DNA of 64,000 nt from an uncultured Nitrosopumilaceae archaeon. GTDB taxonomy: Archaea > Thermoproteota > Nitrososphaeria > Nitrososphaerales > Nitrosopumilaceae. The notes below the pieces were generated by a model. The model did no database searches, was not told the origin of the DNA, and saw only the letters and a program-made list of their open reading frames with translations. The first letter of the stretch is position 1. Each line of letters opens with the position of its first letter. The position numbers were made by a program, and so were the translations under genes. Location of the stretch: the NCBI GenBank assembly GCA_964538885.1, contig CAZIHR010000018.1, forward strand, positions 9,811 to 73,810, read 5' to 3'. Of this stretch, positions 1-64,000 are shown in pieces.

Positions 1-476
1 ATCATTGGTAGCGTAATCAATGTCCACCGATCCATTGGGAGTAGTTTTGGGATGACTGACAGCGCGTTCAAGTCAAATGTGAACAAGTGTGATACTGCCA
101 AGGAAACTACAGTCTGTGTATGTCTAGTGTCTGCATCAGTGAACAGTAGCAGGTCACCGGTGGCTCTTCTGACACCTTCCATACATGCCCAATTTTTACC
201 CATCCATCCAACAGGCTTTGGCCTTGCGGTGACTGAAATTATCTTGGAATCCATGGCTGCAAGCTCATTTATGATATCGCCTGTCTTATCTTCCGATGAA
301 TCATTGATTACAATGATCTCGTAGTTGTTATAGTCTTGACTTGATAGTGATTCTAAACATCTTTTGATGAACCTTTCTTCGTTTCTTGCAGGTACTATAA
401 TTGACACTTTAGGATTGGAGTGTACTTTTTTGTGGAACTTGTCCAGATATGGTGTATGTGCAAATGATTCCATCAT
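1..476 (-). CDS. glycosyltransferase family 2 (N-terminal part; 3' end lies beyond the left window edge)
   Basis: Hand translation of the minus strand gives MMESFAHTPYLDKFHKKVHSNPKVSIIVPARNEERFIKRCLESLSSQDYNNYEIIVINDSSEDKTGDIINELAAMDSKIISVTARPKPVGWMGKNWAC... This is the typical GT2 N-terminal signature (SIIVP-x-x-NEE, IIVINDxSxD). The ORF is open to position 1, so it is absent from the ORF track. The start (ATG 474-476) is uncertain. Confidence 0.7.
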   Translation of the reverse strand, partial: MMESFAHTPYLDKFHKKVHSNPKVSIIVPARNEERFIKRCLESLSSQDYNNYEIIVINDSSEDKTGDIINELAAMDSKIISVTARPKPVGWMGKNWACMEGVRRATGDLLLFTDADTRHTQTVVSLAVSHLFTFDLNALSVIPKLLPMDRWTLITLPM

Positions 477-566
477 TGACTTTATCAAATATATCCATGT
501 TCCTGCTACCCCCACCATGGTTGCTACTAGTGCGTAGTTGAGTACATCTATTGGTGACATCAGTCA

Positions 567-1007
567 TCACTCTAATTCTTTTTTGATGTTTTGTAATGCC
601 AGTTCGGTACCGCTTTTGACGTGTTTTTTTATCATACCTGTAAATATATTCATCATTCCAGTCAGTTTGATGTCCCATGTCACTTTCAGGTTAGTTTTTT
701 CGCCGTGCGGTACAAGAGTGATTATTTTACTACCGCCAATTATTCCTTTTGTAAATACTGCCTCAACTTTTTCTTCTGGAACCAAGCTTACCGTCTGAAT
801 GCATTTCTGGTCTCTAAATGCTATTGTGATCTCCCTCTCTACAGTGTTTCCATTTTTGGATATGTTTCTGATCTCCTTTGTGCCTTTCCAAAACTTGGTT
901 TCGTTGTCTATGTCTGAAATTACTTTCCAGACATTACTGGTAGTTGCGTTGATCTCTATACTGGACTCGATTTTTGCCATATCAAATCTATATGTTTTTG
1001 GTAGCAA
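567..1007 (-). CDS. SRPBCC/START-like (polyketide cyclase/dehydrase-type) small protein
   Basis: 146-aa ORF. The size and the N-terminal pattern I-x-I-x-A-x4-VW-x-V-x-D resemble SRPBCC ligand-binding proteins. Recognition is by eye only. Confidence 0.5.
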   Translation of the reverse strand: MLPKTYRFDMAKIESSIEINATTSNVWKVISDIDNETKFWKGTKEIRNISKNGNTVEREITIAFRDQKCIQTVSLVPEEKVEAVFTKGIIGGSKIITLVPHGEKTNLKVTWDIKLTGMMNIFTGMIKKHVKSGTELALQNIKKELE

Positions 1008-1313
1008 ATATATTAGATTCCTCTACAATTATGTGTTGGCTGTGATGGGCATTATACCTAAAATCCAGAACCGTAACTCCAGTTCTAATGGTAAATGCCA
1101 CTCTTCCGTCACAGTCTTTTGCTCTAAAATAATACTGACAAGATGTGAATTGTGGAATCAGAGCTGGTAACAATATGGTTTTTGAAAATTAGGCCAGTTA
1201 TTTGTACAAATTTACATCGTGACGATAAAAAATACTGTGAATTTATGTAGGATATTCATAGTGATGCAGACTAGAACCCATAATTCATTTAAGCATAGAT
1301 ATCAAGGAAATTC

Positions 1314-1640
1314 ATGGTAGACATAACTTATAGTGATTTTGCCAAACTGGATCTTCGAGTTGCCAAAATAGTCTCCGCAGAGCCAATTCTTGGCAAGACA
1401 AAGATCCTCAAGGGAACAATTGACTTGGGAACTGAGAAACGTGACGTGATAATTGGTGGTGCCCAGTATTATGTACCAAGTGATCTTGTTGGCAAAACAG
1501 TCATAGCTGTTGTTAATCTGGAACCAAAGACCTTGGTTGGTATACAGTCAAATGCAATGCTTCTGGCAGCCGATGTTGACGACAAACCCTTTTGGTTGAC
1601 GGTAAATGATGACGTGCCACTAGGAAGTCCAGTCAAGTAA
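1314..1640 (+). CDS. tRNA-binding OB-fold domain protein (Trbp111/CsaA/MetRS C-terminal-like)
   Basis: 108 aa. DFAKLDLRVAKIVSAEP...IDLGTEKRDVIIG...LVGKTVIAVVNLEPK matches the conserved tRNA-binding domain pattern. A TATA-like TTTAAG lies about 25 nt upstream of the ATG. Confidence 0.8.
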   Translation: MVDITYSDFAKLDLRVAKIVSAEPILGKTKILKGTIDLGTEKRDVIIGGAQYYVPSDLVGKTVIAVVNLEPKTLVGIQSNAMLLAADVDDKPFWLTVNDDVPLGSPVK

Positions 1641-1836
1641 TTTCATTTACAAATGGATTCATACGTCTGTATTGCATTCGAGCATGTCGTTTATCTGGCA
1701 TATGGCAAGTTGAAAGTTATACGTGGGAATACTCGGTAGATCTTTTCAATTTATCTTGAGTGATGCTCACAAATGATTTCATCTCTACCAATCATTTTCA
1801 TAGATATTGCAACGCAAATATTCTCTGATCGCCACT

Positions 1837-2295
1837 TTAGTATTTCGGTTTAGTGTGAAGCAGAAATCCCAATGTTATTATCATGACGATTCCAAATACA
1901 AGAACTAGATTCTCAAGATCAGCTTCACGATATAATTGGTTTGAAAATCCCTCTAGGATCATATTCAATAATTGAGCCGTAGATACTGATATCAATCCAA
2001 ACGAGATCGGCAAATATCTGCGAATTTTTCTTACCAGTAGGAATGGCAACATGGAAGCACCGCTAACTGCACCTCCCATGACATGAATTATCTGATTATC
2101 TGAATCTGAACATATCATGTAACTTGAAAGTAGGTTGAGCTCAATCACTTCAAAGCCTAACCACATGCATGCGATAACGTGTCCAACCTCATGCATAATT
2201 ACACTTGGGATAAGTATTGACATGCCAATAATTACATGTAACAATATTGTGTAAATTCTACATCTTGTGTATTGTTCCATGATGACTGTTAACAT
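1837..2295 (-). CDS. small polytopic membrane protein with an HExxH motif (putative membrane metalloprotease)
   Basis: 152 aa, about 4 hydrophobic segments, with MHEVGHV inside a TM segment. The family was not recognised further. Confidence 0.4.
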   Translation of the reverse strand: MLTVIMEQYTRCRIYTILLHVIIGMSILIPSVIMHEVGHVIACMWLGFEVIELNLLSSYMICSDSDNQIIHVMGGAVSGASMLPFLLVRKIRRYLPISFGLISVSTAQLLNMILEGFSNQLYREADLENLVLVFGIVMIITLGFLLHTKPKY

Positions 2296-2699
2296 ATCTA
2301 ATACCCTCTAAACGTATTTTGCAATCTCTTTGAGATGTCCTAGATTCTTCTGTATGGTGATACATGCAAATAAATTTGAACATGTTGGGCGGTGTCAATA
2401 ACTGTTAATGTTCTGCCTCATTTTCAGATGGTTTTTCTTGTCATATACTCAATCCATGCATAAAATTGACTAACTTTCAAAAACTATGTTAACAGTTACA
2501 CTAAAAACCTTGTGACTGACTCAAACACGTCCTCAAGTTGTGGAATCACGGCAAAATGTGTTGGAATCTATAGATTTTAGATGTTGTGCATGCATGATCT
2601 TGCATGTTGACATTAACAAGATGACATGCACAATTTAGGTCATGTTGCCTGTGCATACTTTTCTTGAATAATATTTCAAACAGATATTGGTGTGTCAAA

Positions 2700-3266
2700 T
2701 CAGTCATAGATCATAAGGTTCTTCTCTTCTAGAAGAGCATGTAGGTTGTTTACTGACCTGTATACGTCTGGTTCTTTCTTGGCTCCTGTGCATACAAGCT
2801 TCCCAGAGGAGAACAGCAGTATCACTGTCTTTGGGTCAAGCATTCTATGTATTAGTCCTGGAAACTGCTCTGGCTCGTACATGCTTCTGGGAAGAGTTCT
2901 TGCGGCCTGTTCAAGATGAATCTTTCCACCCAGATTGATTGACGCTACTATATTCTGTATCTCTACTACTGCATCCTTTTTTACTTTGATTCCACCTCTG
3001 CGCAGCTTTTGCACAACAGTCTTGACTGCTTTTTTTGCCATCTCTTCTGACTTTGAACCAGTACACACCATCTTGCCAGATGTAAAGATCAGGGTAGCGG
3101 TTTTTGGGTTCTTTAGTCTGAAAACCAGTCCGGGGAACTGGTCGGGATGATATTCTACATCGGGAAAGGTCTTCGTAATCTCATTCAGATCCATCTTCTG
3201 ATCAACCGATGCTGAGGCTACCACATTTTCTACGCTTACGATGGGCTTGGTCTGTGGCATATTCAT
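2700..3266 (-). CDS. tbp: TATA-box binding protein
   Basis: 188 aa with two internal repeats: ENVVASASVDQKMDL...FPGLVFRLKNPKTATLIFTSGKMVCTG and QNIVASINLGGKIHL...FPGLIHRMLDPKTVILLFSSGKLVCTG. Confidence 0.95.
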   Translation of the reverse strand: MNMPQTKPIVSVENVVASASVDQKMDLNEITKTFPDVEYHPDQFPGLVFRLKNPKTATLIFTSGKMVCTGSKSEEMAKKAVKTVVQKLRRGGIKVKKDAVVEIQNIVASINLGGKIHLEQAARTLPRSMYEPEQFPGLIHRMLDPKTVILLFSSGKLVCTGAKKEPDVYRSVNNLHALLEEKNLMIYD

Positions 3267-3401
3267 GTTTTTTCTATATTAACTATAATAAAAGCCCTCA
3301 CCATAGTATTTTCCTTTATTTTGGATTTTTTTCACTACTGCCTGAAATTATAGATGCCAAAATGACGAATGATTTAATTTGGCTACATTCAAGTCTGTCA
3401 C

Positions 3402-4523
3402 ATGGATTTTACAAATCTTGATTTTGATCAGTTATTCGGATTTGGCGATGACAGTAACCCCCTGATGATGTTAATATGGATTATACCAATAATTGTTTTT
3501 GTTTTCTATGGACAGAGAATACAGCTGCAGATAACTTCTGGGGAGATCAAAAAAGGAATTAAAAAACTGGATCTATACAGGACCGAATCTAGGAGGGATC
3601 TACTCGACTACATTCAAAAGACTGCCAGCCCGCAAAATGATCCGTCAGGCAAGATCGACAGATTTCTTGATTACTTTACAATTATGCCAGTTAACATGGA
3701 TCCACATGGAATAATGACAAAAATTCGACATGTGGTACGTTCTAGAGAGGATTACTCCAGAGAACATGTAAAGTCACTCTTTCCACATGTGGGCGATCTT
3801 GAGCTGACTCGTATTCAGACATTGCTTGAAATTGCAACCACACTACAAATGCTCCACAAGATCATCACACACATGTTCCTTACTGCCAAGAAACAGAATA
3901 ACTATCCGTTGATCCTACCACTGCAGATGATTCTTCCCTTCCTAATGGAAGAAGCTGAAGCTATGAAGAGTGCGATCCCTGCATTCAAAATGGGGCAACC
4001 CATAGGTGACGGGATCGGTCCTATGGTGGTGGGTAGTATGATGCTTGATACTAAAAAGGATCTAGTGTCCTTTCAGACTGTTCTTGGTATAACTGAATTT
4101 GATGGACGCAAGTTGTTCTTATTGAAAGCTGAGGGGCCAGGATCGACGGTGGGTCGACCTGGAGATGCTGTAGAATCCATCATCAAGAGAAATGACATAT
4201 CTGCTATAATTATGATTGATGCAGCACTGAAGATGGAGGGCGAGGACTCTGCTACCATTGCCCAAGGATTTGGTGCTGCTATAGGCGGCATTGGCACAGA
4301 AAGATATCAGATTGAGGAGATTGCGACAAAAAATGACATTCCGATATTTTCGCTTATCGTAAAACAGTCTGTCAAGGAAGCCATTACTCTGATGAGTAAA
4401 GAGATAGCATTTCAAGCAGATCATGTACGAGCTCGTGTATATGAAATGATCCATGATAATACGAAACAAGAACAGTCCGTGTTGGTGATAGGTGTAGGAA
4501 ACACAGTTGGAGTACCACAATGA
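3402..4523 (+). CDS. archaeal membrane-anchored protein of unknown function (resembles DUF1512 as I recall it)
   Basis: 373 aa with one N-terminal TM segment (LMMLIWIIPIIVFVFYG) and a C-terminal globular part with GFGAAIGGIG. The family name is from memory and is not verified. Confidence 0.45.
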   Translation: MDFTNLDFDQLFGFGDDSNPLMMLIWIIPIIVFVFYGQRIQLQITSGEIKKGIKKLDLYRTESRRDLLDYIQKTASPQNDPSGKIDRFLDYFTIMPVNMDPHGIMTKIRHVVRSREDYSREHVKSLFPHVGDLELTRIQTLLEIATTLQMLHKIITHMFLTAKKQNNYPLILPLQMILPFLMEEAEAMKSAIPAFKMGQPIGDGIGPMVVGSMMLDTKKDLVSFQTVLGITEFDGRKLFLLKAEGPGSTVGRPGDAVESIIKRNDISAIIMIDAALKMEGEDSATIAQGFGAAIGGIGTERYQIEEIATKNDIPIFSLIVKQSVKEAITLMSKEIAFQADHVRARVYEMIHDNTKQEQSVLVIGVGNTVGVPQ

Positions 4524-4699
4524 TATTCTCCAAGGAAAAAATCACTATTGCATATACTGTTGAAAAATGCTTTCAGTGCGGTACGGAAAGAAAGAGAGAG
4601 TTTGTGGAAGGTGATGTCCTATTCACCAAAACGATAAAGTGCAATTCTTGCGACAATATGGTTGTTATAGACAAAATTTTTGGTGAAATAATCGAGTAA
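4520..4699 (+). CDS. 59-aa zinc-ribbon protein (CxxC...CxxC), translationally coupled to the upstream gene
   Basis: Hand translation: MIFSKEKITIAYTVEKCFQCGTERKREFVEGDVLFTKTIKCNSCDNMVVIDKIFGEIIE. Its ATG overlaps the upstream TGA (ATGA at 4520-4523). It is below the size cutoff of the ORF track. Confidence 0.5.
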   Translation: MIFSKEKITIAYTVEKCFQCGTERKREFVEGDVLFTKTIKCNSCDNMVVIDKIFGEIIE

Positions 4700-4953
4700 A
4701 TGACCTACTAGATATTTCCTCTGCATTGCCTTTTAGTTACATACTGTGTGGTGACTGATATGGATATTAGACAATCTTAGGCACGTCGACCCAACCACAA
4801 CTTGGCATACTATACACAACTCTTCATCATACCAACTGCCTTATACAGCACGTTTGTCATCCTAATTTGTAGCATTTACCCCTCATAAATGGGTTGTACT
4901 CTATATGGTATTGTTTTGTAACTATACTAATTGACAAACTTTTGCTTTGATTT

Positions 4954-6582
4954 ATGGTAGCATGGGCTTTTCAACAAATCTATAAACTGCTATGGTGCTG
5001 TATAATTATGCATGATGTATTAAATTCCTACTTGCATGATATGGTTCGTGTATGTCGATCTCACAACTTGTTGCCGTTACTCTTGATTGCAATTTCTGTT
5101 ACTTTGCTTGTAGTCACCCTGCCAGATGACACGTTGGCTAGTTATTACAAGGCCCCAACCAAACCAACCAATCTTACTATAATACCTGCAAATGAGTCTG
5201 TCGAGTTATCTTGGAATGCCCCTACATATTCAGGAAGCTCCGACATCATTGACTATAAAATATTTTACAAAGAGGCCAGCATGAATATTGCCCAGTGGAT
5301 CAGAGTTAATGATGGAGTAAATACAAATACGACTGTAAAAATAGATGGTCTGAATAACGGTACATATTATTACTTTGCAGTATCAGCCATGAATGAAGTA
5401 CGTACCAGTGTTTCGGCTCGTACGTCAGGCACACCAGGAATCCCGGGTGCGCCTACTGAGTTGTTAACCATAAGCAGAGACTCACATGTGAGAGTATCTT
5501 GGAAACCTCATGATGTCACCGGTGGCTCTGCCCTATCTGATTTTATAATTCAATACAAGAAAAATACTGATAGTGAGTTCATTACTTTTGAAGATGGAAA
5601 AAGCACAAACGATTGGGCAGTTGTGACAGGTCTTACCAATGGCATCACCTATGATTTTCGAATTGCAGCAAGGAACCAAGCGAATCAGGGAACGTGGTCC
5701 GTCACGGTTGCTGCCACGCCAGGAACCGTACCTAGCGTCCCGACCGAATTGACAGCTATATCTGGTGATGGTTCTGTAAAGCTCTCATGGACGACACCCG
5801 TAGATATCGGCGGCTCCAGCATAACCGAGTATACTGTAACGCGTAGATACCATGAATCAGGTATCACTTCAGCATGGTATATTGTCTGGAACGGCAAGAA
5901 CACCACTGCTACAGTATCAGATCTAGTAAACGGTAGACACTACGAATTTAGTGTGGCCGCACTTAATTCCTACGGTATGGGGCCAAGTACTAGTGCGTCG
6001 GCCATCGCAGGGGCACCAGGCATCCCGACGGATCTGAAAGCCATCGCAGGATTTGAGCAGGTCACCCTCTCTTGGACGGTCCCTACAAACAACGGTGGCT
6101 CTGCCATAACTGATTATGTGGTGCAGTATAGAGTAGGCACTAATGAATTCCAAACGTTTGCCGATAAGAAGAATACATCCACTACAGTAACTATAACTGA
6201 CTTGGATCCGGGATTGGAATATTCATTCAGGGTCGCGGCAGTCAATGATTTAGCCACCGGATTCTGGTCATATACAGCATCTGCAACGCCTAAATCGAGC
6301 GTGCCTGGCTATGTGACTGGTGTATGGGCGGACACTAGTATTACCTTACAGACTACTCTACACTGGAAAGCTCCCACTTACACGGGTATCTCTGACATAA
6401 CTGATTATACAATACAGTACAAACAAGAGGATGCAAAAGTGTGGACCTCACTCAACGACGACATATCTACGAACACAACAGCTACTGTGACAGGCTTGAC
6501 TGAAAATGTGACGTACGAATACAGGATTGCAGCAGTAAACTCTGCAGGTGCGGGGCCCTGGTTTGTCATCCTTGTTTTGTAG
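4954..6582 (+). CDS. secreted/surface protein with five tandem fibronectin type III domains
   Basis: Five repeats of the pattern P-T-x-L-x6-V-x-L-S-W-x-x-P-x3-G-x-S-x-I-x-D-Y-x-I-x-Y, each followed by Y-x-F-x-V/I-A-A-x-N. There is an N-terminal hydrophobic anchor (LLPLLLIAISVTLLVV). The real start is probably an internal Met (MHDV or MVRV). Confidence 0.8.
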   Translation: MVAWAFQQIYKLLWCCIIMHDVLNSYLHDMVRVCRSHNLLPLLLIAISVTLLVVTLPDDTLASYYKAPTKPTNLTIIPANESVELSWNAPTYSGSSDIIDYKIFYKEASMNIAQWIRVNDGVNTNTTVKIDGLNNGTYYYFAVSAMNEVRTSVSARTSGTPGIPGAPTELLTISRDSHVRVSWKPHDVTGGSALSDFIIQYKKNTDSEFITFEDGKSTNDWAVVTGLTNGITYDFRIAARNQANQGTWSVTVAATPGTVPSVPTELTAISGDGSVKLSWTTPVDIGGSSITEYTVTRRYHESGITSAWYIVWNGKNTTATVSDLVNGRHYEFSVAALNSYGMGPSTSASAIAGAPGIPTDLKAIAGFEQVTLSWTVPTNNGGSAITDYVVQYRVGTNEFQTFADKKNTSTTVTITDLDPGLEYSFRVAAVNDLATGFWSYTASATPKSSVPGYVTGVWADTSITLQTTLHWKAPTYTGISDITDYTIQYKQEDAKVWTSLNDDISTNTTATVTGLTENVTYEYRIAAVNSAGAGPWFVILVL

Positions 6583-6711
6583 TGAATAAAAGCGGTTCTC
6601 AATTTTCTGTTTTTACAAGCTTTTGATTCAACCTTCAAAAGTATATCATTTACACTGCATACATTTTTTGCAGCTGGATATGTGATATTTATCATACAAC
6701 TTTAGATACAC

Positions 6712-7671
6712 TTAGGTATGTCTGCCTGTGGCGGGAACTTGGTATGTGGTAATCGTGACTCCGTTATCATTTGGAATAAAAGTGTGTTCTGCCTGCGCTA
6801 CATTCTGTCCGTTTATCTCGATCAGTATCGGATATGCTTGAATTGCTTTTTTCTTGACCAAGTAATTCAGCAACTCATTAGCTTTTCTGACATCCCATTT
6901 TTTTGTAAGCCATCTTAGTGCAAATGGCAACATGTTAAATTCTTTCCATATGTAATCCAAAAGTTCGTCTGCTTCTTTATCTTTCGTCTTCTTTCTTGTA
7001 TTCAACGCAAAGATATTTTTGATTTTTCCATTCCTTACAAATCCGCCTCCCTCTGCTGTGGTCACAAATGGCTCACACGCGTATGCTGAATCTCCAGACA
7101 ATAAAAAACCCCCAAATATATGCATGTTTGGAATTGTTTTGCCTGCGTGGATGGTGTATCTGTCCAATGAGTGTCCGCTGAGATTTGCAATTGGCTTAAA
7201 GCCCATTTTTTTGATGGATGTCTCTATCGTTCTACCTACATCACTTGCCTTGACCCCTGTTTTAATCATGGACATTGCTCTGCTTAACGCGTCCTCTGCA
7301 GCTTGTATAATCCTACTAAAGCTTATGTCGTTGCATATGGTCACCGCCGTATCTGCAATGTATCCGTTAATGTGTGCCCCTAGATCTATTTTTACAAGAT
7401 CTGTGTCCTTGATTACTATGGGATCGTCAGGTTCTGCAGTATAGTGGGCTGCAACTTCGTTGATACTTGCATTAACTGGAAACGCGCATTTTGCACCCCT
7501 TTTGATTATCTCGCCTTCGATCTCCTCACATATCTCGTAGACCGTTCTCCCAACAAGATTCTTCTTTCTTACATCTTCCCTGACTTCTCCTGCAATCCTT
7601 CCTGCTTTGAGATAATCTTCTGTCTGCACGACTCTGTTTGCCGACGTGCCTTTAAAATGGTTGTCTGTCAA
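6712..7671 (-). CDS. map: methionine aminopeptidase, type 2 (archaeal)
   Basis: 319 aa. Metal-ligand context VAAHYTAEPDD, KIDLGAHINGYIADTA, SGHSL, CEPF and AQAEHT is typical of type-2 MetAP. Confidence 0.9.
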   Translation of the reverse strand: MTDNHFKGTSANRVVQTEDYLKAGRIAGEVREDVRKKNLVGRTVYEICEEIEGEIIKRGAKCAFPVNASINEVAAHYTAEPDDPIVIKDTDLVKIDLGAHINGYIADTAVTICNDISFSRIIQAAEDALSRAMSMIKTGVKASDVGRTIETSIKKMGFKPIANLSGHSLDRYTIHAGKTIPNMHIFGGFLLSGDSAYACEPFVTTAEGGGFVRNGKIKNIFALNTRKKTKDKEADELLDYIWKEFNMLPFALRWLTKKWDVRKANELLNYLVKKKAIQAYPILIEINGQNVAQAEHTFIPNDNGVTITTYQVPATGRHT

Positions 7672-7672
7672 G

Positions 7673-7680
7673 CTTAAATT
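7673..7680 (+). promoter_or_regulatory. TATA-like box for tRNA-Pro
   Basis: CTTAAATT is centred about 25 nt upstream of the tRNA 5' end. Confidence 0.4.
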
Positions 7681-7701
7681 GGGTCATCCTTACGGGTTAC
7701 T

Positions 7702-7778
7702 GGGATCGTAGTCTAGCTTGGTATGATTCTGCGTTTGGGACGCAGAGGTCGCGCGTTCAAATCTCGCCGGTCCCACCA
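7702..7778 (+). tRNA. tRNA-Pro (anticodon UGG), CCA encoded
   Basis: Folded by hand. Acceptor is GGGATCG/CGGTCCC. The anticodon arm is CTGCG-TTTGGGA-CGCAG (anticodon TGG). The T arm is GCGCG-TTCAAAT-CTCGC (one C-U mismatch). Discriminator is A followed by CCA. Length 77 nt. Confidence 0.85.
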
Positions 7779-8067
7779 TGATCACTACCTTCTTATCGAG
7801 TAATATGTCCCAAGAGTCTGCCGGGCAATGAAGATGAGTTAGAGTTGCGATTTTTGATGAAATGATTTGTGAATACTGAGCCACGGCATGATTTGTAATT
7901 GTGCTAATCTGTACTTTGTAAATAGTGGTGACTGGCATGTTTGTGCCTATATCTACACATTTTTACGGTTGACTCCCACTAATCCGACGCTCTCATACAT
8001 ATGACTTTAACAACTAGCTCAACTTTTACTCAATTTCACTCTAAAATGACTCTGTTGCCACTGTTAG

Positions 8068-11000
8068 GTGAATCTTACCATGAATCCGAGTATAGCTGTT
8101 TTGTTTATTGTGCCTTTTTTGGCATATCTTCCAATATCCGTTGATGCTCAATTGTCAGCCGATCATGTAGTAATTAACGAACTTGATACAAACCCATCAC
8201 TTGACCTTTCGGGGCCTACCTTTGGATGGGTGGAATTGTACAATCCTACTAGTGGTATGATGGACATTGGTGACTGGGAGATTATATCTGCTACCACGGA
8301 GATATCTTTATCGGTGCCCACGGGAACGACGCTCAAACCAAATGAATTCATGATCTTCTCACACAATACTGCATGGTTTACCAACATTGATGAGACAGTA
8401 GAACTGCATGACAGTAATGGTGTGGTGATTGATGCAACCCCACAACTCACAGACTTGCACAACAATGCATTGTCTTGGCAAAGAATTCATGACGGCCACG
8501 ACCTTGACTCTGATGATGACTGGCGTTTTGCTCAATCTGTCCCCGGCGAATCCAACTCAAAGACATACCTGAAGGAAACCGGAGTCACTGTATCCATCGT
8601 ATCTGATAAGGACACTTATACAATGGGCGAGACTGCAAAACTTGAAGGACGTGTATCTGAGCAGATTTTTAAGATGTCGCCTTTTCTCTCTCCTGAACCG
8701 ATAATTCTGACAGTATCTGGCCCGGCTTATCATCACACAGAGCTGTTTTATCCGGATCGCAACAACAGCTTTGAAACTACAGTCAAAATACATAAGGTAC
8801 TTGGCATTGATGTGGGTAATTACAATGTCTTTGTATCGTACGCCGGAGCTACCTCTCAAACTACTTTTGTAATAAATACTATAGTTCCAATTATCCCTGA
8901 ATCACATAAAGATACACTTTTGCTGTCCACTGACAAGACAGAGTACGTCCCCGGTCAGACAGTCAAGATTGCAGGACAAGTCAGTACAGTGATTCCATTT
9001 GAAGGACTTGTATTTCGAGTATCTGATCCACTAGGCAATTTGGTAGCATCCGGCAATCTATTTCCTACGGGCAACAAGTTTTCCACAACCGTCTTTCTAA
9101 CTAGTCTTCAACCTGTATATGGCACATATGAGATATTTGGCATGTATTCTGAGCAGTCATACACTGCATCGTTTGATTTGGTTTCTAACACAAAGGATGA
9201 TGCCACAATCTCACTTCAGACGGACAGAAAAGTGTACGGGCTTGGTGACACTGTTAAGATCACTGGTAGCCTGAATACGCATTGGATTCAAGCACTAAAT
9301 CTTGAAATTTCACAGACAAAAAATATTGCCTTGGGAGTTAGTAGCATTCCTAGTGGTGGTACTGTCTTGAAAATACTTGATGCTGTCAGGTTAGATGGTG
9401 ATGGGAGCTTTAAATATGAATTTACTATACCTCGAGGAACTGACAGGCTTGGTGACTATATAATCAAGGTTTCAGGTGATATTGGTTCTATAATTAAGTC
9501 ATTTACGGTGTCAGAACATCCTGATACATATGTGTCTCCAAGTGGCTCCCTGATGCTGGTTACTGACAGTTTGTCTTATGAGCTGAATGACACGATGGTG
9601 ATTATCGGCAAAATCCCTGACTCTGCTCTACACTTTGGTACATCTGTGGTAAATCTTACAATCCGTGACGATGATGGATCTGCCATCGGAGTCAAATTCA
9701 CTGCCATTCCAGATCAGTCAGGCAGATTTTCATTTGAAATTCCTGTATCTAACTCACTTTATGATGCTGGAAGTCATACTGTTGAGGTCACCTACCAGAA
9801 CTTGTCACAGTCTGCCACAATAGAGTTCACTGATATCATTGGAGAAAGGGGATTCTTTATCACCACTGACAAGCAGATCTATGGACTGTCCGATACCGTT
9901 AGTCTTACTGGTGTACTACCTCACACTGGGGAGAACACAGTGGTGATCTCATTGACCAAACCTGGCGGAACTATAATAAATTCTGGGACGCGCGTTGACA
10001 ACCAGAAATTCACTTGGACATGGCCAACACCAACATTTGCAACACCTACCTCATTCAAGTCTACCAATGACAGATCCATCATTGCATCCAACTTGGGTGT
10101 GTACAAGATAACTGCAACAAATGGTGCCTTCTCTGATACTGTCTTCTTCACGGTATCCGCTAATCCTGATGCCGATGTTACACACAAACCACTAATTCTA
10201 AGTACTGCAAAGTCATCTTATATGGCAGGTGAAAAATTATTGGTAACCGGTTATGTCCTCCAAAAGGATCGAGGTGACCAAGGATTATCTATACCTCCTG
10301 CTGTCAAGATAACAATTCTGCCCGGCAAATTATATGGTGCACCTATTTTTGAAGCATCTGTGTATCCTGACCCTGGAGGTAATTTTAAGAGCCAATTTGA
10401 CCTGCCACCTGCCATCTTTGCGGAGGGACAATATATGGCAAGGGCCACTTATGCCAACATGTCAGCCGAATCCTCATTTGACGTGATAAATGAATTTGCT
10501 ATTGGGGTCGTCGGAGATGTCGATCTCATACTATCTACAGACAAGCAGACATATAATTTGGGTGATCTTGTAACTGTAACTGGCAAACTGAGCCGAATAA
10601 TTCATCTTGACAAGTTTGATGTCAGCGTAACCAAAAAATCTGAACATGAGATTACCTGCGGCTCTATCATATGTGGAAAGCATTTGGGTCCGGTAACTAA
10701 TATACCGCCATCCCCATCTGGTTCGTTTACCTATGAATATATGATAGGTGATACTCCATCTGATGCTGGATTCTATGAAATAATCGTAGATGCTGGTTTT
10801 GACACGAAATCCATCCTGTTTGAAGTGATCCCAAAACCTTCAATTGAGGTACCAGAATCTGAATCTTATACAGTTATAGAAAAATTCAATCGTATACCAG
10901 ATTCACATACAGTCATACAGGTTTCCACCAAAATCTCAGAAAATGGTGATGCCTTACACCCGCGAGTGCTGTCCGGCTCCGTAGTGACTCCCTCAGCGTC

Positions 11001-19662: not shown

Positions 19663-20652
19663 CTACTCGACATCATACACCTCCCCTGATTGCGCATCTA
19701 TAACGCTGGTTCCCTTTGGTGGCATTTTACGTACAAATGCTTTGGCGGGTGTTTCCAGAGAGTCTCAGTCAAGCGACATATGGGGCCGGATGTGGTTCCA
19801 CCAATGGACAAGCTCATGAATATCTGAAAACCACTTTTGTTTGCGTTGTATCTCCCCATGGAATCGCTCCAGCTTGCCGTTTGTCTGGGGGTGGTTGACA
19901 CGTGCGAGTATGTGCCTTATCTCTAGTGATTTATTACTGTTTTCATCCTATCCCGTTCGCTGGTGGTTGACACGTGCAAGTATGTGCCTTATCTCTAGCC
20001 TGACTAGTTCCTGCTCAAACTCGGATGCCCCCTTTTTCTTATGCTCGGACTCACTGGCATAGAACTGACTGCCGCGGTCAGTCAGGATTGACGCCGGCCT
20101 GCCGTGCTTTTTTATGGCAGTGTGCAGTACCTCTATTGCGTGCCTACCCGTGGCATGTGCAAACACACCATATCCGGCTATGAACCGCGAGGCATCGTCC
20201 TGATACGCTATGAACCACCTGCCATCATCTAGGAGTTTATAGTCGGTGTGCCACAAAGAGTTGGAGTGCGTGCGTTCATATCGCACCCATTTAAGCCTGC
20301 GTGACTTTTTTGGCTGTTTTGTGGCCATCGCCCCATCCCTCATTATCCTGTGTATGGTATTATGAGGTATATGGATTCCGCGCAGGTCCAGCGCCTTCTC
20401 AATTCCCACGGTGCCTATTCGGTATTGTCCAAAGTATTCTGATACCCGCGTGCGCATCCTGTCGGCGATGACCGCCAACGGCCTGCCGGGCCTCCCAAGA
20501 GCCGGAATCTTTCCTGTGGCAAGATACCTAGCATACAACTTTTGGATCCATCGCCCACACACCTTCATTTCCAGTGCTATCTCGCCTGTACTCCTACCAA
20601 GTTCCTTCTGCCGTATGATGTATTTCACCTTGATGGGATCAAGCTTTGCCAT
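19663..20652 (-). pseudogene. IS481-like DDE (integrase-core) transposase, disrupted by an in-frame insertion carrying TAG (19948-19950) and by an in-frame TGA (19765-19767)
   Basis: The N-terminal HTH, WHTDYK (D) and LTDRGSQF (D) lie in the 234-aa ORF. Hand translation downstream continues in frame as LEIRHILARVNHPQTNGKLERFHGEIQRKQKWFSDIHELVHWWNHIRPHMSLD-TGA-DSLETPAKAFVRKMPPKGTSVIDAQSGEVYDVE, which contains the catalytic E motif (NGKLERFH). Confidence 0.75.
19890..19998. repeat. 37-bp direct repeat (36/37 identical) flanking a 35-bp spacer inside the transposase gene
   Basis: GGTGGTTGACACGTGC[G/A]AGTATGTGCCTTATCTCTAG occurs at 19890-19926 and 19962-19998, a period of 72 bp. Confidence 0.9.
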
Positions 20653-51271: not shown

Positions 51272-51375
51272 TGGTGCAGAGGGTGGGATTTGAACCCACG
51301 AACTCCTAAGAGAAAGGATGTCTTATGTGTATGATCTTGAGTCCTTCTCGGTTGACCGGGCTTCGATACCTCTGC
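51272..51375 (-). tRNA. tRNA-Leu (anticodon CAA) with a 16-nt intron at the canonical 37/38 position; CCA encoded
   Basis: Minus strand: GCAGAGG-TA-TCG..CGA-G-AAGGA-CTCAAG[ATCATACACATAAGAC]A-TCCTT-long variable arm (CTC..GAG)-GTGGG-TTCAAAT-CCCAC-CCTCTGC-A-CCA. It is 104 nt with the intron and 88 nt without. Confidence 0.8.
51320..51335 (-). other. tRNA-Leu intron (boundaries ambiguous by 1 nt because an A flanks both sides)
   Basis: Removing this segment restores the 5-bp anticodon stem AAGGA/TCCTT and the 7-nt loop CTCAAGA. Confidence 0.7.
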
Positions 51376-60437: not shown

Positions 60438-60698
60438 GGTAGAAATAACTCTGTTATATTATAAATACATGTGGAAAAATAGGCATAGCTAAATAGATTC
60501 ATATTATATATTGTAACAAATGGTCGTTTTACTGTTTCAATATGTGCGATCAAATTATGAGGCAAAATTTTGATTGTAAATGACAATAACTGGACATATT
60601 TACTACATATTCCTATACTCTGATTGACGTTTCAAGTATGATGACATAGATAATCCTAGTGATCTTTTAAGATATTTTATTATGATTATAACGTACAG

Positions 60699-61451
60699 CT
60701 AAAGCCTTTCTAGTGCCTGCATCATCTTCTTGTGGGCTGAGTCGCGAACATCTTTTTCAAAATTTAGAATTTCATGCACATTAGGCACTACTTTGCTATG
60801 CTTTTTCATATATTTGATAAATACACCACAGTCACGTATGTCTCCGAGTATATCTTGCAGGGATTTCAAGATGGCAACCATCTTATCATATCTGTCATCC
60901 GTATTCATCTCCATGACATATCTGAGCTTTTTTGTAGTCTTTCTCATGGCGTGCAACTCATTCATGTTGCTCTTGCCGTTCAATACCGTGTTGATACTAT
61001 CATTATAGTTATCAATGAGTACAAGTAGTCTTTTTTGAAATTTATCGTATGTGGCCTTTGACTTTTTGATTTTTGGTTTTTTCATCTGAGCGATCTCTTC
61101 GGCAAGATCCAGCGCCTTAGACAATCTCTTAAGCTTCTTTTTTGTAATGAGCAATAAAATTCTTGATTCTTGGTCAAAGCCATATGCCTTTAGCTTCTTC
61201 AATATTATGTCGTGATCCCGAATAGTACTGTTTGCTGAGAAAAGCTTTCCGTATGCTAAAATTAATCTGCTTAATCTCTTTGTCCTACTGGATTTGGGAA
61301 GCACCGAGTATGCGGCCTCCAGCCTCCTACTGGTGACTCTCACATCATGAATTGTCTCTTCTGTTGGTTCCATGAGATATGTATCTAGCGTCTTGTATGC
61401 CTTGTCTAGTCTGACTAGAAATAAATCAAAAAATGATTCTTGTGTAGTCAT
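60699..61451 (-). CDS. CHAD-domain protein (polyphosphate-binding module)
   Basis: 250 aa and all-helical. It carries the CHAD hallmark repeats IHDVRVTSRRLEAAY and LHAMRKTTKKLRYVMEM, plus LQDILGDIRDCGV. Its ATG overlaps the upstream TGA (ATGA, 61448-61451). Confidence 0.85.
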   Translation of the reverse strand: MTTQESFFDLFLVRLDKAYKTLDTYLMEPTEETIHDVRVTSRRLEAAYSVLPKSSRTKRLSRLILAYGKLFSANSTIRDHDIILKKLKAYGFDQESRILLLITKKKLKRLSKALDLAEEIAQMKKPKIKKSKATYDKFQKRLLVLIDNYNDSINTVLNGKSNMNELHAMRKTTKKLRYVMEMNTDDRYDKMVAILKSLQDILGDIRDCGVFIKYMKKHSKVVPNVHEILNFEKDVRDSAHKKMMQALERL

Positions 61452-62185
61452 TCTGCCTTTGCCAGAAATCTACCAATCTGTTTTTGTAGTGTGACGTTTA
61501 CCTGTTCTTGTGTTCTGTTTCCATCTACTGATGTGAGGTCATATTTCTGTTTCAAATATTCAAATTCTCTTGCAAGCTTTCGTTGATAAATTATAAATGA
61601 CTCAAACATATCTTCGGATAGTCCCATATCTGCGCCTGACTCGTGATAGTCAAGAGACTGTCTTTTTGCAAATACTCTGTGAACCAGCTTGAATGGATCT
61701 ACATCTAAGTAGAATATCAGGTCTGGTACCAGTGCAAAGCTGTACAAGTTGGAGGACCACTGTCTTTTGATTCCACGTACTGTATTCCTTGCCATCAGTG
61801 TGTAGATGTATCTGTCTGCCAGTACCATATAGCCTGCTTGTAGTGCAGGAATTATTTTGTGCTCCATCTGATCGGCAAAGTCTGCCGCATAAAACATGGC
61901 ACTTGTTCTCTTCCCTAGTGAGATGTTCCTCTTTGCTTCCAGTATTCCCTCACCTATGAGCTCCGAACGTTTGAGGCCTGTGTTGAGTACAGCAAACCCG
62001 TCTGCTTCCAACTTGGATGTGAGCATCTCAATTTGTGTACTGCGACCAGACGCGTCCGGCCCCTCTATCACAATCAATCTTCCACTGATCTCAAGATCCT
62101 GCAAGTATGTTATGCCACCAGATCTATCGTTTCCATACCAGACTGGTTTGCGCCTCTTTTTGGTGTGTGCAAGGTTGGATCTCAT
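61448..62185 (-). CDS. thymidylate-kinase-fold P-loop protein, paralog 2 (degenerate Walker A GPDASGRST; basic N-terminal extension)
   Basis: 245 aa. RLIVIEGPDASGRSTQIEMLTSKLEADGFAV, FYAADFADQ and LADRYIYT give a Tmk-like architecture. Its ATG overlaps the TAA of paralog 1 by 1 nt (TAATG). Confidence 0.8.
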   Translation of the reverse strand: MRSNLAHTKKRRKPVWYGNDRSGGITYLQDLEISGRLIVIEGPDASGRSTQIEMLTSKLEADGFAVLNTGLKRSELIGEGILEAKRNISLGKRTSAMFYAADFADQMEHKIIPALQAGYMVLADRYIYTLMARNTVRGIKRQWSSNLYSFALVPDLIFYLDVDPFKLVHRVFAKRQSLDYHESGADMGLSEDMFESFIIYQRKLAREFEYLKQKYDLTSVDGNRTQEQVNVTLQKQIGRFLAKAE

Positions 62186-62886
62186 TATGGTACCTCTAGT
62201 ATCGACTTTTTGACTCTTGTTGGGAACAGTCGCATGACACTATCTCTCATGATCTTTTGTTGCTCTTTGATATCTAGTGTGGCATCTATAATTGTAAAGC
62301 GTTCACGTCTTGCCATGGATTCGTATTGTTCAATGATTCTACTTTGGAATATTCTGTAACTCTCGTATACATCCTTACTCAGATTCATGTCCATTCCAGC
62401 CTCGTAATATTTTAGCTTCGGCCTGCCAGCTAGAATGCGATCCATTGAAATGTCTATTGGTACTCTGAAATAAAACGCTAGGTCTGGTTTTAACGCAAAA
62501 TTATACATTTTTTTTACCCATGACTGATTACATCCTCTCGTAACATCTCTTGCATATGCAGTGTAGATGTACCTATCTGCTAACACAAAGTATCCTGCAC
62601 GTAGCAATGGCAGTATGTTCCGCTCGAATCTGTCTGCAAAGTCGGTTGCATGTAACAGACTAAATGTGATAGGGGTGAGGTTGGTCTTTTTCTTTCCTTT
62701 GGATGTTATTGACTTTACCATATCTGATGAGTTCCATTCTGTGCGGAATACTTCCAAGCCATTGTACTGAAGCCATTTTTCCAGCAGGCGTAACTGTGTA
62801 GACTTGCCCGAACCGTCGATTCCTTCTACAACAACTAGTTTTCCTGGCACACCATATTTTTTCAGAGAACGTCTTGAATAATTCAA
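62185..62886 (-). CDS. thymidylate-kinase-fold P-loop protein, paralog 1 (canonical Walker A GIDGSGKST)
   Basis: 233 aa with a TTG start. KLVVVEGIDGSGKSTQLRLLEKWLQYNGLEV, LLHATDFADR and LADRYIYTAYA give a Tmk-like architecture. Confidence 0.8.
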   Translation of the reverse strand: MNYSRRSLKKYGVPGKLVVVEGIDGSGKSTQLRLLEKWLQYNGLEVFRTEWNSSDMVKSITSKGKKKTNLTPITFSLLHATDFADRFERNILPLLRAGYFVLADRYIYTAYARDVTRGCNQSWVKKMYNFALKPDLAFYFRVPIDISMDRILAGRPKLKYYEAGMDMNLSKDVYESYRIFQSRIIEQYESMARRERFTIIDATLDIKEQQKIMRDSVMRLFPTRVKKSILEVP

Positions 62887-62911
62887 GTGTATATATTGTT
62901 CATGGATTCGC

Positions 62912-62917
62912 TATAAA
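62912..62917 (-). promoter_or_regulatory. TATA-like box of the Tmk-like/Tmk-like/CHAD operon
   Basis: The minus-strand TTTATA is centred about 28 nt upstream of the TTG start at 62886. Confidence 0.35.
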
Positions 62918-63043
62918 CTTTGCATTTTACTTGTGCGTGAAAAAACATTGTCAGAGCCGATAAACTGTATCTTTTCTTCAATTGTGGTACCTGTGGGAGC
63001 ATTATTACATATTAGCTACATTCCGGCATGCCTGATCTTTATT

Positions 63044-64000
63044 CTATTTGTAGTATATTTCTGGTTTGATGGGAATGCCCAACACGTTTGCCATTTTTGA
63101 GCATACTTGTAGCATGAGAACTTTGGGAAATTTATTCGTCGACGGATATATGTCTAGGACAAGTGTAGATGTAGTATCGGTTCTTGGTTTTACATGTGTT
63201 CTTGTTTTGTGAAAGATGTCGCATAGTGATACAACTACTGCTATCTTTTTGATAATTTTCTTGTCGTCTCCATTTAGAATATCTTTGAATTTGTCCATCA
63301 ACATCTCTGCTTTTTTCTTCTTTTGTGAATAGATCAGTGACAGTGCGACAATCAACTGTTCCCTGTGTGACAGCTCACTATCTTCATCTAGCATCGTGTA
63401 TAGTATATTGTTTACATCTCTAAACGCGGAGAGCCTGTTAATCTGTAGTATTGCTTCTGCCAGTAAAATTCTCTCTTTATTAGTTAACAGGTTCATTGTA
63501 AAAAGCAGTTGTACCAGATCCTCGACATACTCTGAAACGATACTAGACTGGCATGACATGTGAATCAGATCACGTACATGATCCACATCTATAGTGTGGG
63601 TGGCAAAGTCATCTGGGAATTGGAGTGAAAGGGACAATGTGCCCTCGCGCAGACCTTGTGCACTGATTACGAGCGACGTAAATCCCAACTTTCTTACAAT
63701 CTCTGAAATTATCAATGCCCCCACCTGAATAATGTGAGTGTTGCCTCCTACAATCGATTCAATCCTCGATATGTCTTTGGATGTACCTGACAGCAATTCA
63801 TCTGAGATTGATTTTAGTGATTCGTATGACATGGAATAGTTGTGTACCTTTGAGAGTGGATAGTGTATCATCTGTTGGTGGTACTTTGCTATCTTTCGTA
63901 ACGTGCCTCCAACACCTACTAGCACATGATCAATACCATCAGAAATTCCCAGAGCCTCTCTTGTAGGCAGGCTCTCATTTATGTGAGACTGCATCATTGA
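63044..64000 (-). CDS. ppx: Ppx/GppA-family exopolyphosphatase (C-terminal ~318 aa; 5' end beyond the right window edge)
   Basis: The ORF is open to position 64000. HVLVGVGGTLRKIAK, GGNTHIIQVGALIISEIVRKLGFTSLVISAQGLREGTL (the end of the actin-like ATPase domain) is followed by a helical HD-like domain. Confidence 0.8.
   Translation of the reverse strand, partial: SMMQSHINESLPTREALGISDGIDHVLVGVGGTLRKIAKYHQQMIHYPLSKVHNYSMSYESLKSISDELLSGTSKDISRIESIVGGNTHIIQVGALIISEIVRKLGFTSLVISAQGLREGTLSLSLQFPDDFATHTIDVDHVRDLIHMSCQSSIVSEYVEDLVQLLFTMNLLTNKERILLAEAILQINRLSAFRDVNNILYTMLDEDSELSHREQLIVALSLIYSQKKKKAEMLMDKFKDILNGDDKKIIKKIAVVVSLCDIFHKTRTHVKPRTDTTSTLVLDIYPSTNKFPKVLMLQVCSKMANVLGIPIKPEIYYK

Follow-up and report, generated by a model that had tools for sequence, protein, structure and literature searches.

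We analysed a 64,000-nucleotide stretch of DNA from an uncultured Nitrosopumilaceae archaeon (contig CAZIHR010000018.1 of assembly GCA_964538885.1, forward-strand positions 9,811 to 73,810; hereafter the window) and describe a minus-strand locus at its right end, which contains two adjacent genes, gene A and gene B, for proteins with the fold of thymidine monophosphate (dTMP) kinases. Judged from their residue signatures, phylogeny and gene context, these genes very probably encode the catalytic and the regulatory subunit, respectively, of a family-3 polyphosphate kinase (PPK3). With the same high confidence, we read the locus as the 3' part of a five-gene polyphosphate (polyP) operon with the order sixA-ppx-cPPK3-rPPK3-CHAD.

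SaPPK3 of Sulfolobus acidocaldarius, to which we compare the pair, has been described as a heteromeric, reversible polyP kinase (Hofmann et al., J Biol Chem 2026, PMC12995831; bioRxiv 10.1101/2024.08.28.610084). It is encoded within the operon saci_2017-2021, which comprises sixA (2017), ppx (2018), two genes annotated as thymidylate kinases (2019 and 2020) and a CHAD gene (2021). Of these two proteins, Saci_2019 carries out the catalysis (cPPK3) and Saci_2020 is its regulatory, inactive partner (rPPK3); together they form an alpha2beta2 heteromer in which c is activated by r (PMC12995831). Neither protein has dTMP kinase activity, and the real Tmk of the organism is encoded by a third gene, saci_0893 (PMC12995831). 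An earlier, sequence-only reading of the window had pointed to a dTMP-kinase-like pair beside ppx in S. acidocaldarius as a candidate polyP kinase, and Saci_2019 and Saci_2020 are indeed this pair. The published occurrences of PPK3 cover Sulfolobaceae, 'Nitrososphaeraceae' (or 'some Nitrososphaerales') and some bacteria, and PPX, SixA, CHAD and Pst genes are found in its neighbourhoods (PMC12995831; bioRxiv 10.1101/2024.08.28.610084). The abstract of the paper mentions 'a few bacteria', and its text describes the PPK3 branch as predominantly bacterial (PMC12995831).

Orthology of the window pair to the PPK3 subunits

The best match of the window proteins, in sequence as well as in structure, is STK_15430 (ST1543) of Sulfurisphaera tokodaii (PDB 2plr, 4nzy, 4rzx and 5h70), which represents the catalytic subunit only and was crystallised alone and deposited as a dTMP kinase. 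When searched against PDB sequences, the gene A product scored 212 bits with 50% identity to STK_15430 (2plr/5h70), whereas no canonical Tmk exceeded 64 bits; for the gene B product, the corresponding values were 124 bits and at most 49 bits. The AlphaFold2 single-chain model of the gene B product (predicted local distance difference test score 79.9) likewise had 5h70 as its best structural match, with a TM-score of 0.88-0.89.

Gene A (62185..62886, minus strand) encodes 233 aa when read from a TTG codon and matches the Thymidylate_kin model. The gene caller had chosen a GTG at 62850 for the same gene on a longer contig described below (221 aa), but the calls for its homologues, at 233-238 aa, favour the TTG at 62886. 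The protein has the Walker-A motif GIDGSGKS (K28) and a DRY sequence that supplies the arginine of the DRX motif (R105). In a column comparison, it was found to hold every residue specific to the c clade defined below, namely K28, E50-W-N-S-S54, T71-P72, H79, R86, D114, R155 and K159. Like SaPPK3, gene A keeps an intact P-loop, the DRX motif and the c-clade residues that are conserved among 87 sequences, and by these signatures it is cPPK3, the orthologue of the catalytic subunit.

To place the pair in its family, we used the motifs conserved between gene A and STK_15430 in a scan for cPPK3 in one genome per GTDB species. The scan yielded at least 525 confirmed loci, the best 80 of which were kept for comparison; these comprised 16 archaeal loci (1 from Metallosphaera and 15 from Nitrososphaerales and related archaea) and 64 bacterial loci. 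A phmmer map of the 80 loci revealed, in nearly all of them, a GIDGSGKS gene followed by an adjacent paralogue with the motif G.DG.GR[ST], and ppx, sixA and/or CHAD lay beside this c-r pair in most. The synteny of the Tmk-like pair with ppx and CHAD, on which the sequence-only reading had staked its proposal, is conserved across archaeal and bacterial phyla among these best 80 loci. The bacterial carriers were found in Acidobacteriota (including Bryobacterales), Nitrospira, Planctomycetota, Binatia, Chloroflexota, Verrucomicrobiota, Bacteroidota and a Desulfobacterota-like group.

A neighbour-joining (NJ) tree was computed from 158 sequences, that is, 155 PPK3-type proteins and, as a small outgroup sample, the Tmk proteins of E. 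coli, S. aureus and P. falciparum. All three canonical sequences branched outside an ingroup composed of an 87-tip c clade, which holds gene A together with STK_15430, and a 68-tip r clade, to which gene B and the r-subunit of Metallosphaera belong. Within these clades, gene A and gene B each sit inside a Nitrososphaerales group, as neighbours of Nitrosopumilus. Bootstrapping of a 44-taxon set gave values of 83 for the ingroup, 78 for the c clade, 33 for the r clade, and 77 and 56 for the two Nitrososphaerales groups. The phylogenetic comparison of the paralogues with bona fide Tmk, for which the sequence-only reading had called, thus separates them from these three outgroup sequences at a bootstrap value of 83.

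The regulatory subunit and its P-loop

Gene B (61448..62185, minus strand, 245 aa) also matches Thymidylate_kin and holds every residue that the column comparison identified as specific to the r clade, i.e. R48, G70, R73, Y99 and A114. From its sequence, gene B is rPPK3, the orthologue of the regulatory subunit. It shares r-only residues (G70, R93, Y99, Q106, L130 and others) with the S. acidocaldarius r-subunit, P0162, and with nine further Sulfolobaceae r-subunits, all of which have the dTMP kinase fold. These common residues support a single origin of the r type, despite the identity of only 28% between gene B and S. acidocaldarius rPPK3. We also considered a separate origin of the window r-subunit, which is 36% identical to its own c-subunit and thus closer to it than to the Sulfolobus protein, and rejected it on account of the shared r-only residues.

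Gene B differs from S. acidocaldarius rPPK3 at positions that bear on catalysis. The inactivity of rPPK3 has been explained by the loss of the DRX arginine (PMC12995831), and all 10 aligned Sulfolobaceae r-subunits, P0162 included, read ADGY, with Gly in place of this Arg. Gene B, in contrast, retains the arginine (R125, ADRY) and instead has an Arg in place of the Walker-A Lys (R48, GPDASGRS), a position at which S. acidocaldarius rPPK3 has Lys. Within the Sulfolobaceae, the Walker-A Lys is present in S. acidocaldarius, Sulfolobus sp. A20, S. tengchongensis and Aramenus, and Arg occupies this position in Metallosphaera, Acidianus and Sulfurisphaera. Among the 68 r-type sequences, the Walker-A Arg was found in every one and the DRX Arg in 67, Metallosphaera being the sole exception. 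The disabling substitutions of the r type differ by lineage, with DRX Arg to Gly in the Sulfolobaceae and Walker-A Lys to Arg in Nitrososphaerales and bacteria. In addition, the basic residues R86, R155 and K159 of the c clade are not conserved in the r clade.

In P-loop nucleoside triphosphatases, a change of the Walker-A Lys to Arg normally abolishes phosphoryl transfer. As the published DRX explanation fails for gene B, we infer its inertness from this change; if the protein is inactive, the likely cause is the P-loop substitution and not the published one. The gene B product may still bind nucleotides. The absence of the DRX loss in gene B concerns the mechanism of inactivation, not its orthology.

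A further difference between gene B and the Sulfolobaceae r-subunits is an N-terminal extension of about 34 aa (residues 1-34, encoded by 62084..62185), in which the confidence of the AlphaFold2 model is low. This extension is common to the r-subunits of Nitrososphaerales and bacteria and is absent from c-type proteins and from Sulfolobaceae r-subunits. It consists of an aromatic-Tyr/Phe-Gly segment (WYG in the window), followed, some 20 residues ahead of the P-loop, by a loose G-[LI]-P motif; in the window r-subunit the extension motif reads VWYGNDRSGGITYL, with Thr replacing Pro. The retained DRX Arg, the invariant Walker-A Arg and the conserved aromatic-Tyr-Gly extension together raise the idea that, outside the Sulfolobaceae, the r-subunit is a pseudokinase that binds nucleotides, or provides a second, weak active site, and is not a dead scaffold, which we consider rather unlikely.

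A deviating pair was observed in Candidatus Gastranaerophilales. In four loci (L022, L035, L042 and L050), the second paralogue has a Walker-A Lys (GTDGSGKS), and the one that was aligned, from L022, keeps the DRX Arg as well. The placement of this paralogue is unstable, as it groups with the c clade when all 158 sequences are used for the NJ tree and with the r clade in the tree of 44 taxa. Both subunits may be active in these bacteria, or the pair may represent an early stage in the divergence of the r type.

Operon layout, partner genes and a candidate internal promoter

The sequence-only reading had described four co-directional minus-strand genes at the right end of the window, assigned them to Ppx/GppA, two Tmk-like proteins and CHAD, and noted that the last three are coupled by overlapping codons; each of these observations held up. 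The open reading frames (ORFs) are present, and a search with profile hidden Markov models placed all four products above the curated Pfam cut-offs (Ppx-GppA, 33 bits for the fragment; Thymidylate_kin, 90.7 bits for gene A and 75.3 bits for gene B; CHAD, 66.6 bits). Gene A and gene B share 1 nt in a TAATG junction, and gene B and the CHAD gene share 4 nt in an ATGA junction. The same two overlaps and the same gene order recur in the gene calls of the relatives L083-L086.

The window contains the 3' part of ppx (63044..>64000, minus strand; 317 codons), which matches Pfam Ppx-GppA as well as TIGR03706. Logan contig L001, the DNA of which is identical to the window, extends beyond the window end and displays the complete sixA-ppx-c-r-CHAD operon, in the identical numerical order of the five genes in S. 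acidocaldarius. On this contig, the full-length ppx product comprises 510 aa and scores 153 bits with Ppx-GppA, and a gene for a 163-aa His_Phos_1 protein, which is sixA-like and has an RHG motif, lies upstream of it. The PDB sequence matches of Ppx are exopolyphosphatases, e.g. 3hi0 and 1t6c. The ppx product is a predicted exopolyphosphatase, for which specificity for polyP rather than pppGpp is putative.

The last gene of the operon (60699..61451, minus strand) encodes a 250-aa CHAD-domain protein, the Pfam score of which compares with a gathering cut-off of 25.6 bits; it weakly matches the CHAD chains 6qv7/6qva and 3e0s in the PDB. A CHAD gene directly follows rPPK3 in L083-L086, L013 and L043 as well. 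At the Metallosphaera locus (L002), the ORF after rPPK3 has an HDxRV motif and yet no Pfam match at E <= 1e-4, and the assignment of CHAD at this locus rests on the statement of the paper for Sulfolobus.

Two relatives offered additional views of the module. In L084 (a 2.3-Mb contig, ENA ERZ25084387), cPPK3-rPPK3-CHAD stand at 3698..8950 without sixA or ppx and are flanked by genes for IS66-type and DDE_3 transposases; insertion sequences seem to have detached or relocated the module. In L086, a Nitrosarchaeum sp. contig, the PPK3 operon (1..7490) directly follows pstC-pstA-pstB-phoU on the same strand, which ties it to the phosphate-uptake regulon there. Downstream of the operon, the window, L083 and L085 have the same suf genes. 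A small gene on the opposite strand (112-127 aa, without a Pfam match) lies right after CHAD in L083 (7496..7834), L085 (7483..7866) and L086 (7507..7848); in L083 and L085, its neighbour on the other side is sufB. This small gene is absent from the window, where the gap after CHAD (60438..60698) measures only 261 bp.

The spacer between ppx and cPPK3 spans 157 bp (62887..63043, minus strand). Both the spacer and a TATA-like box before the TTG start had been pointed out in the sequence-only reading, and we located the box, TTTATAG, at 62917..62911 on the minus strand, 24 nt upstream of the TTG at 62886. A box of the form AAAnT(T/C)TATA(G/C) is found 24-26 nt before the cPPK3 start in all six close Nitrosopumilaceae loci that were compared (L001, L083, L084, L085, L086 and L007), across which the spacer varies in length from 54 to 157 nt. 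The start codon is TTG in five of the six loci and ATG in one; here, L085 is counted as TTG based on a reading of the N-terminal alignment, the gene caller having picked an upstream ATG. L084 keeps the box though ppx and sixA are missing there. The spacer thus probably holds an internal archaeal promoter. The conservation of the TATA box upstream of a conserved TTG suggests that c-r-CHAD is transcribed separately, as a leaderless or near-leaderless mRNA with an unusual non-AUG start. This would differ from Sulfolobus, for which a single operon transcript has been reported. An Rfam scan detected no RNA element within the locus.

Elsewhere in the window, the other ORFs of at least 200 aa are ordinary archaeal housekeeping genes. 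An Rfam tRNA match of 101 nt and 41.5 bits at 51275..51375 (minus strand), which ARAGORN did not report, is probably an intron-containing archaeal tRNA gene. At 19951..20652 (minus strand), amid the housekeeping genes and adjoining a TFB gene, lies an ORF whose product has an integrase core (rve) domain; it may be the remnant of an insertion sequence or of an integrated element.

Predicted activity, alternative explanations and implications

By homology to SaPPK3, the c- and r-subunits would assemble, probably into a c2r2 heterotetramer built around a dimer of r, and this assembly would reversibly catalyse ATP + polyP(n) <-> ADP + polyP(n+1). The regeneration of ATP from polyP would be favoured, and net polyP synthesis would occur only at high ATP/ADP. 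Ppx would hydrolyse the polymer to phosphate, and the CHAD protein would presumably bind the polymer or the polyP granule. The host is a mesophilic Nitrosopumilaceae archaeon, in which we expect, by analogy, the same chemistry and assembly as in SaPPK3. The sequence-only reading had proposed a heteromeric nucleoside triphosphate:polyP phosphotransferase acting as polyP kinase. Orthology to PPK3 supports the heteromeric kinase; the proposal needs to be amended in that only one of the two subunits is catalytic and in that SaPPK3 strongly prefers to make ATP out of ADP and polyP (PMC12995831).

The arrangement of an active P-loop module with an inactive, paralogous oligomerisation module has been likened by the authors of the SaPPK3 study to class II two-domain PPK2 (P. 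aeruginosa PA3455), which also uses polyP and nucleotides (PMC12995831). Class II PPK2 belongs to another P-loop kinase family, however, its modules are fused in one chain and not encoded by two genes, and its ADP and polyP sites are swapped according to the paper (PMC12995831). With the Pfam PPK2 domain model, we obtained no match for gene A or gene B at E <= 0.01.

Several points weigh against assigning PPK3 function to the window pair. The polyP kinase activity, the lack of dTMP kinase activity and the activation of c by r are known from the Sulfolobus orthologues only. Gene B retains R125 and thus lacks the DRX replacement that the paper gives as the reason for rPPK3 inactivity, and the monophyly of the r clade is weakly supported (bootstrap 33%). 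Both window proteins pass the cut-off of the dTMP kinase equivalog TIGR00041 (92.4 and 88.7 bits versus 83.25), in conflict with the residue and clade evidence. Finally, the scan for tmk, PPK1 and PPK2 covered the 64-kb window only; no PPK1, PPK2 or third Tmk was present among its ORFs of at least 200 aa, in line with the sequence-only reading, which had noted that PPK1 and PPK2 homologues are absent from the window. For PPK3-bearing genomes in general, the paper describes a separate canonical tmk and, usually, the absence of PPK1 and PPK2 (PMC12995831).

The TIGR00041 result would be expected if both genes encoded ordinary dTMP kinases of nucleotide salvage that lie next to ppx and CHAD by coincidence, and homologues of the pair are indeed named dTMP or thymidylate kinase in public records. 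The pair does resemble canonical Tmk (TIGR00041/PF02223) in fold, P-loop, DRX motif and LID architecture. It differs in forming a distinct clade that excludes the canonical sequences, in consisting of adjacent genes in a polyP context and in the residues of the substrate site. TREPGGT and F..AAR, which we take to be the dTMP-binding motifs of Tmk, align with TEWNSSD and H.TDF in gene A and with TGLKRSE and Y.ADF in gene B. Together with the lack of dTMP kinase activity in the Sulfolobus orthologues, where the canonical Saci_0893 supplies it, and with the conserved proximity to ppx, sixA or CHAD in archaeal as well as bacterial phyla, these replacements make the salvage explanation highly improbable. 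The routine annotation as 'dTMP kinase' is instead accounted for by the fact that both PPK3 subunits pass the TIGR00041 cut-off.

Two other explanations accept the pair as PPK3 and differ in what it does. The complex might serve in vivo as a polyP-dependent ADP kinase only, i.e. as an energy buffer, with an unknown other enzyme making the polymer. Such a role would fit the preference of SaPPK3 for ATP formation, as polyP was made only when an ATP-recycling system kept ATP/ADP high (PMC12995831), and it would fit Nitrosopumilus maritimus SCM1, which has polyP granules and no recognised polyP genes (PMC11082331), suggesting that further enzymes await discovery in ammonia-oxidising archaea. The reaction is reversible in vitro, however, most PPK3-bearing genomes lack PPK1 and PPK2, and the operon context of PPK3 with ppx mirrors that of ppk1-ppx operons (PMC12995831); we therefore regard a purely ADP-phosphorylating complex as not very probable. 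We give even less weight to the explanation that both paralogues are catalytically competent here or that the r-subunit acts on some other phosphate acceptor. The window r-subunit does retain the DRX arginine, as nearly all r-type sequences do, along with the LID and most nucleotide-binding residues, and P0162, the only r-subunit characterised as inactive, exhibits the opposite pattern, with the Walker-A Lys kept and the DRX Arg lost. Against a second active site stand the Walker-A Arg found throughout the r type, with its usual consequence for phosphoryl transfer, and the lack of conservation of the three basic c-clade residues. A PPK3 with one catalytic and one regulatory subunit remains the explanation that we favour.

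The description of PPK3 closed a long-standing gap, the missing polyphosphate kinase in Crenarchaeota, and the window adds a further orthologous copy from a marine-type Nitrosopumilaceae archaeon. The sequence-only reading had expected the CHAD partner and the lineage to extend the Sulfolobus precedent. This expectation was overtaken, as the literature already covers the PPK3 system, the accompanying CHAD (saci_2021) and SixA proteins and the occurrence in Nitrososphaerales. The new details are the residue pattern and the N-terminal motif of the r-subunit, the conserved TATA box and TTG start, and the number of bacterial carriers; they refine a known family rather than establish a new type of system.

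For ammonia-oxidising archaea, the finding bears on how polyP metabolism is surveyed. A 2024 study, which used KEGG numbers for PPK1, PPK2 and PPX only, detected ppx or ppk2 in only some of these archaea, often ppx without a kinase, and it is this study that reported the granules of N. maritimus SCM1 (PMC11082331). Surveys of this type miss PPK3, because both of its genes pass the dTMP kinase cut-off and are named accordingly. For the family as a whole, the published explanation of rPPK3 inactivity fits the Sulfolobaceae and, in our sample, not the remaining members. Since many bacterial species carry PPK3, as the share of bacterial loci among the best 80 illustrates, biochemistry on one PPK3 from outside Sulfolobus would be worthwhile. 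Should the r-subunit outside the Sulfolobaceae prove to be a pseudokinase that binds nucleotides, or to provide a second, weak active site, the control of PPK3 direction, between polyP synthesis and ATP regeneration, would differ from the published model in ammonia-oxidising archaea and in many soil bacteria.

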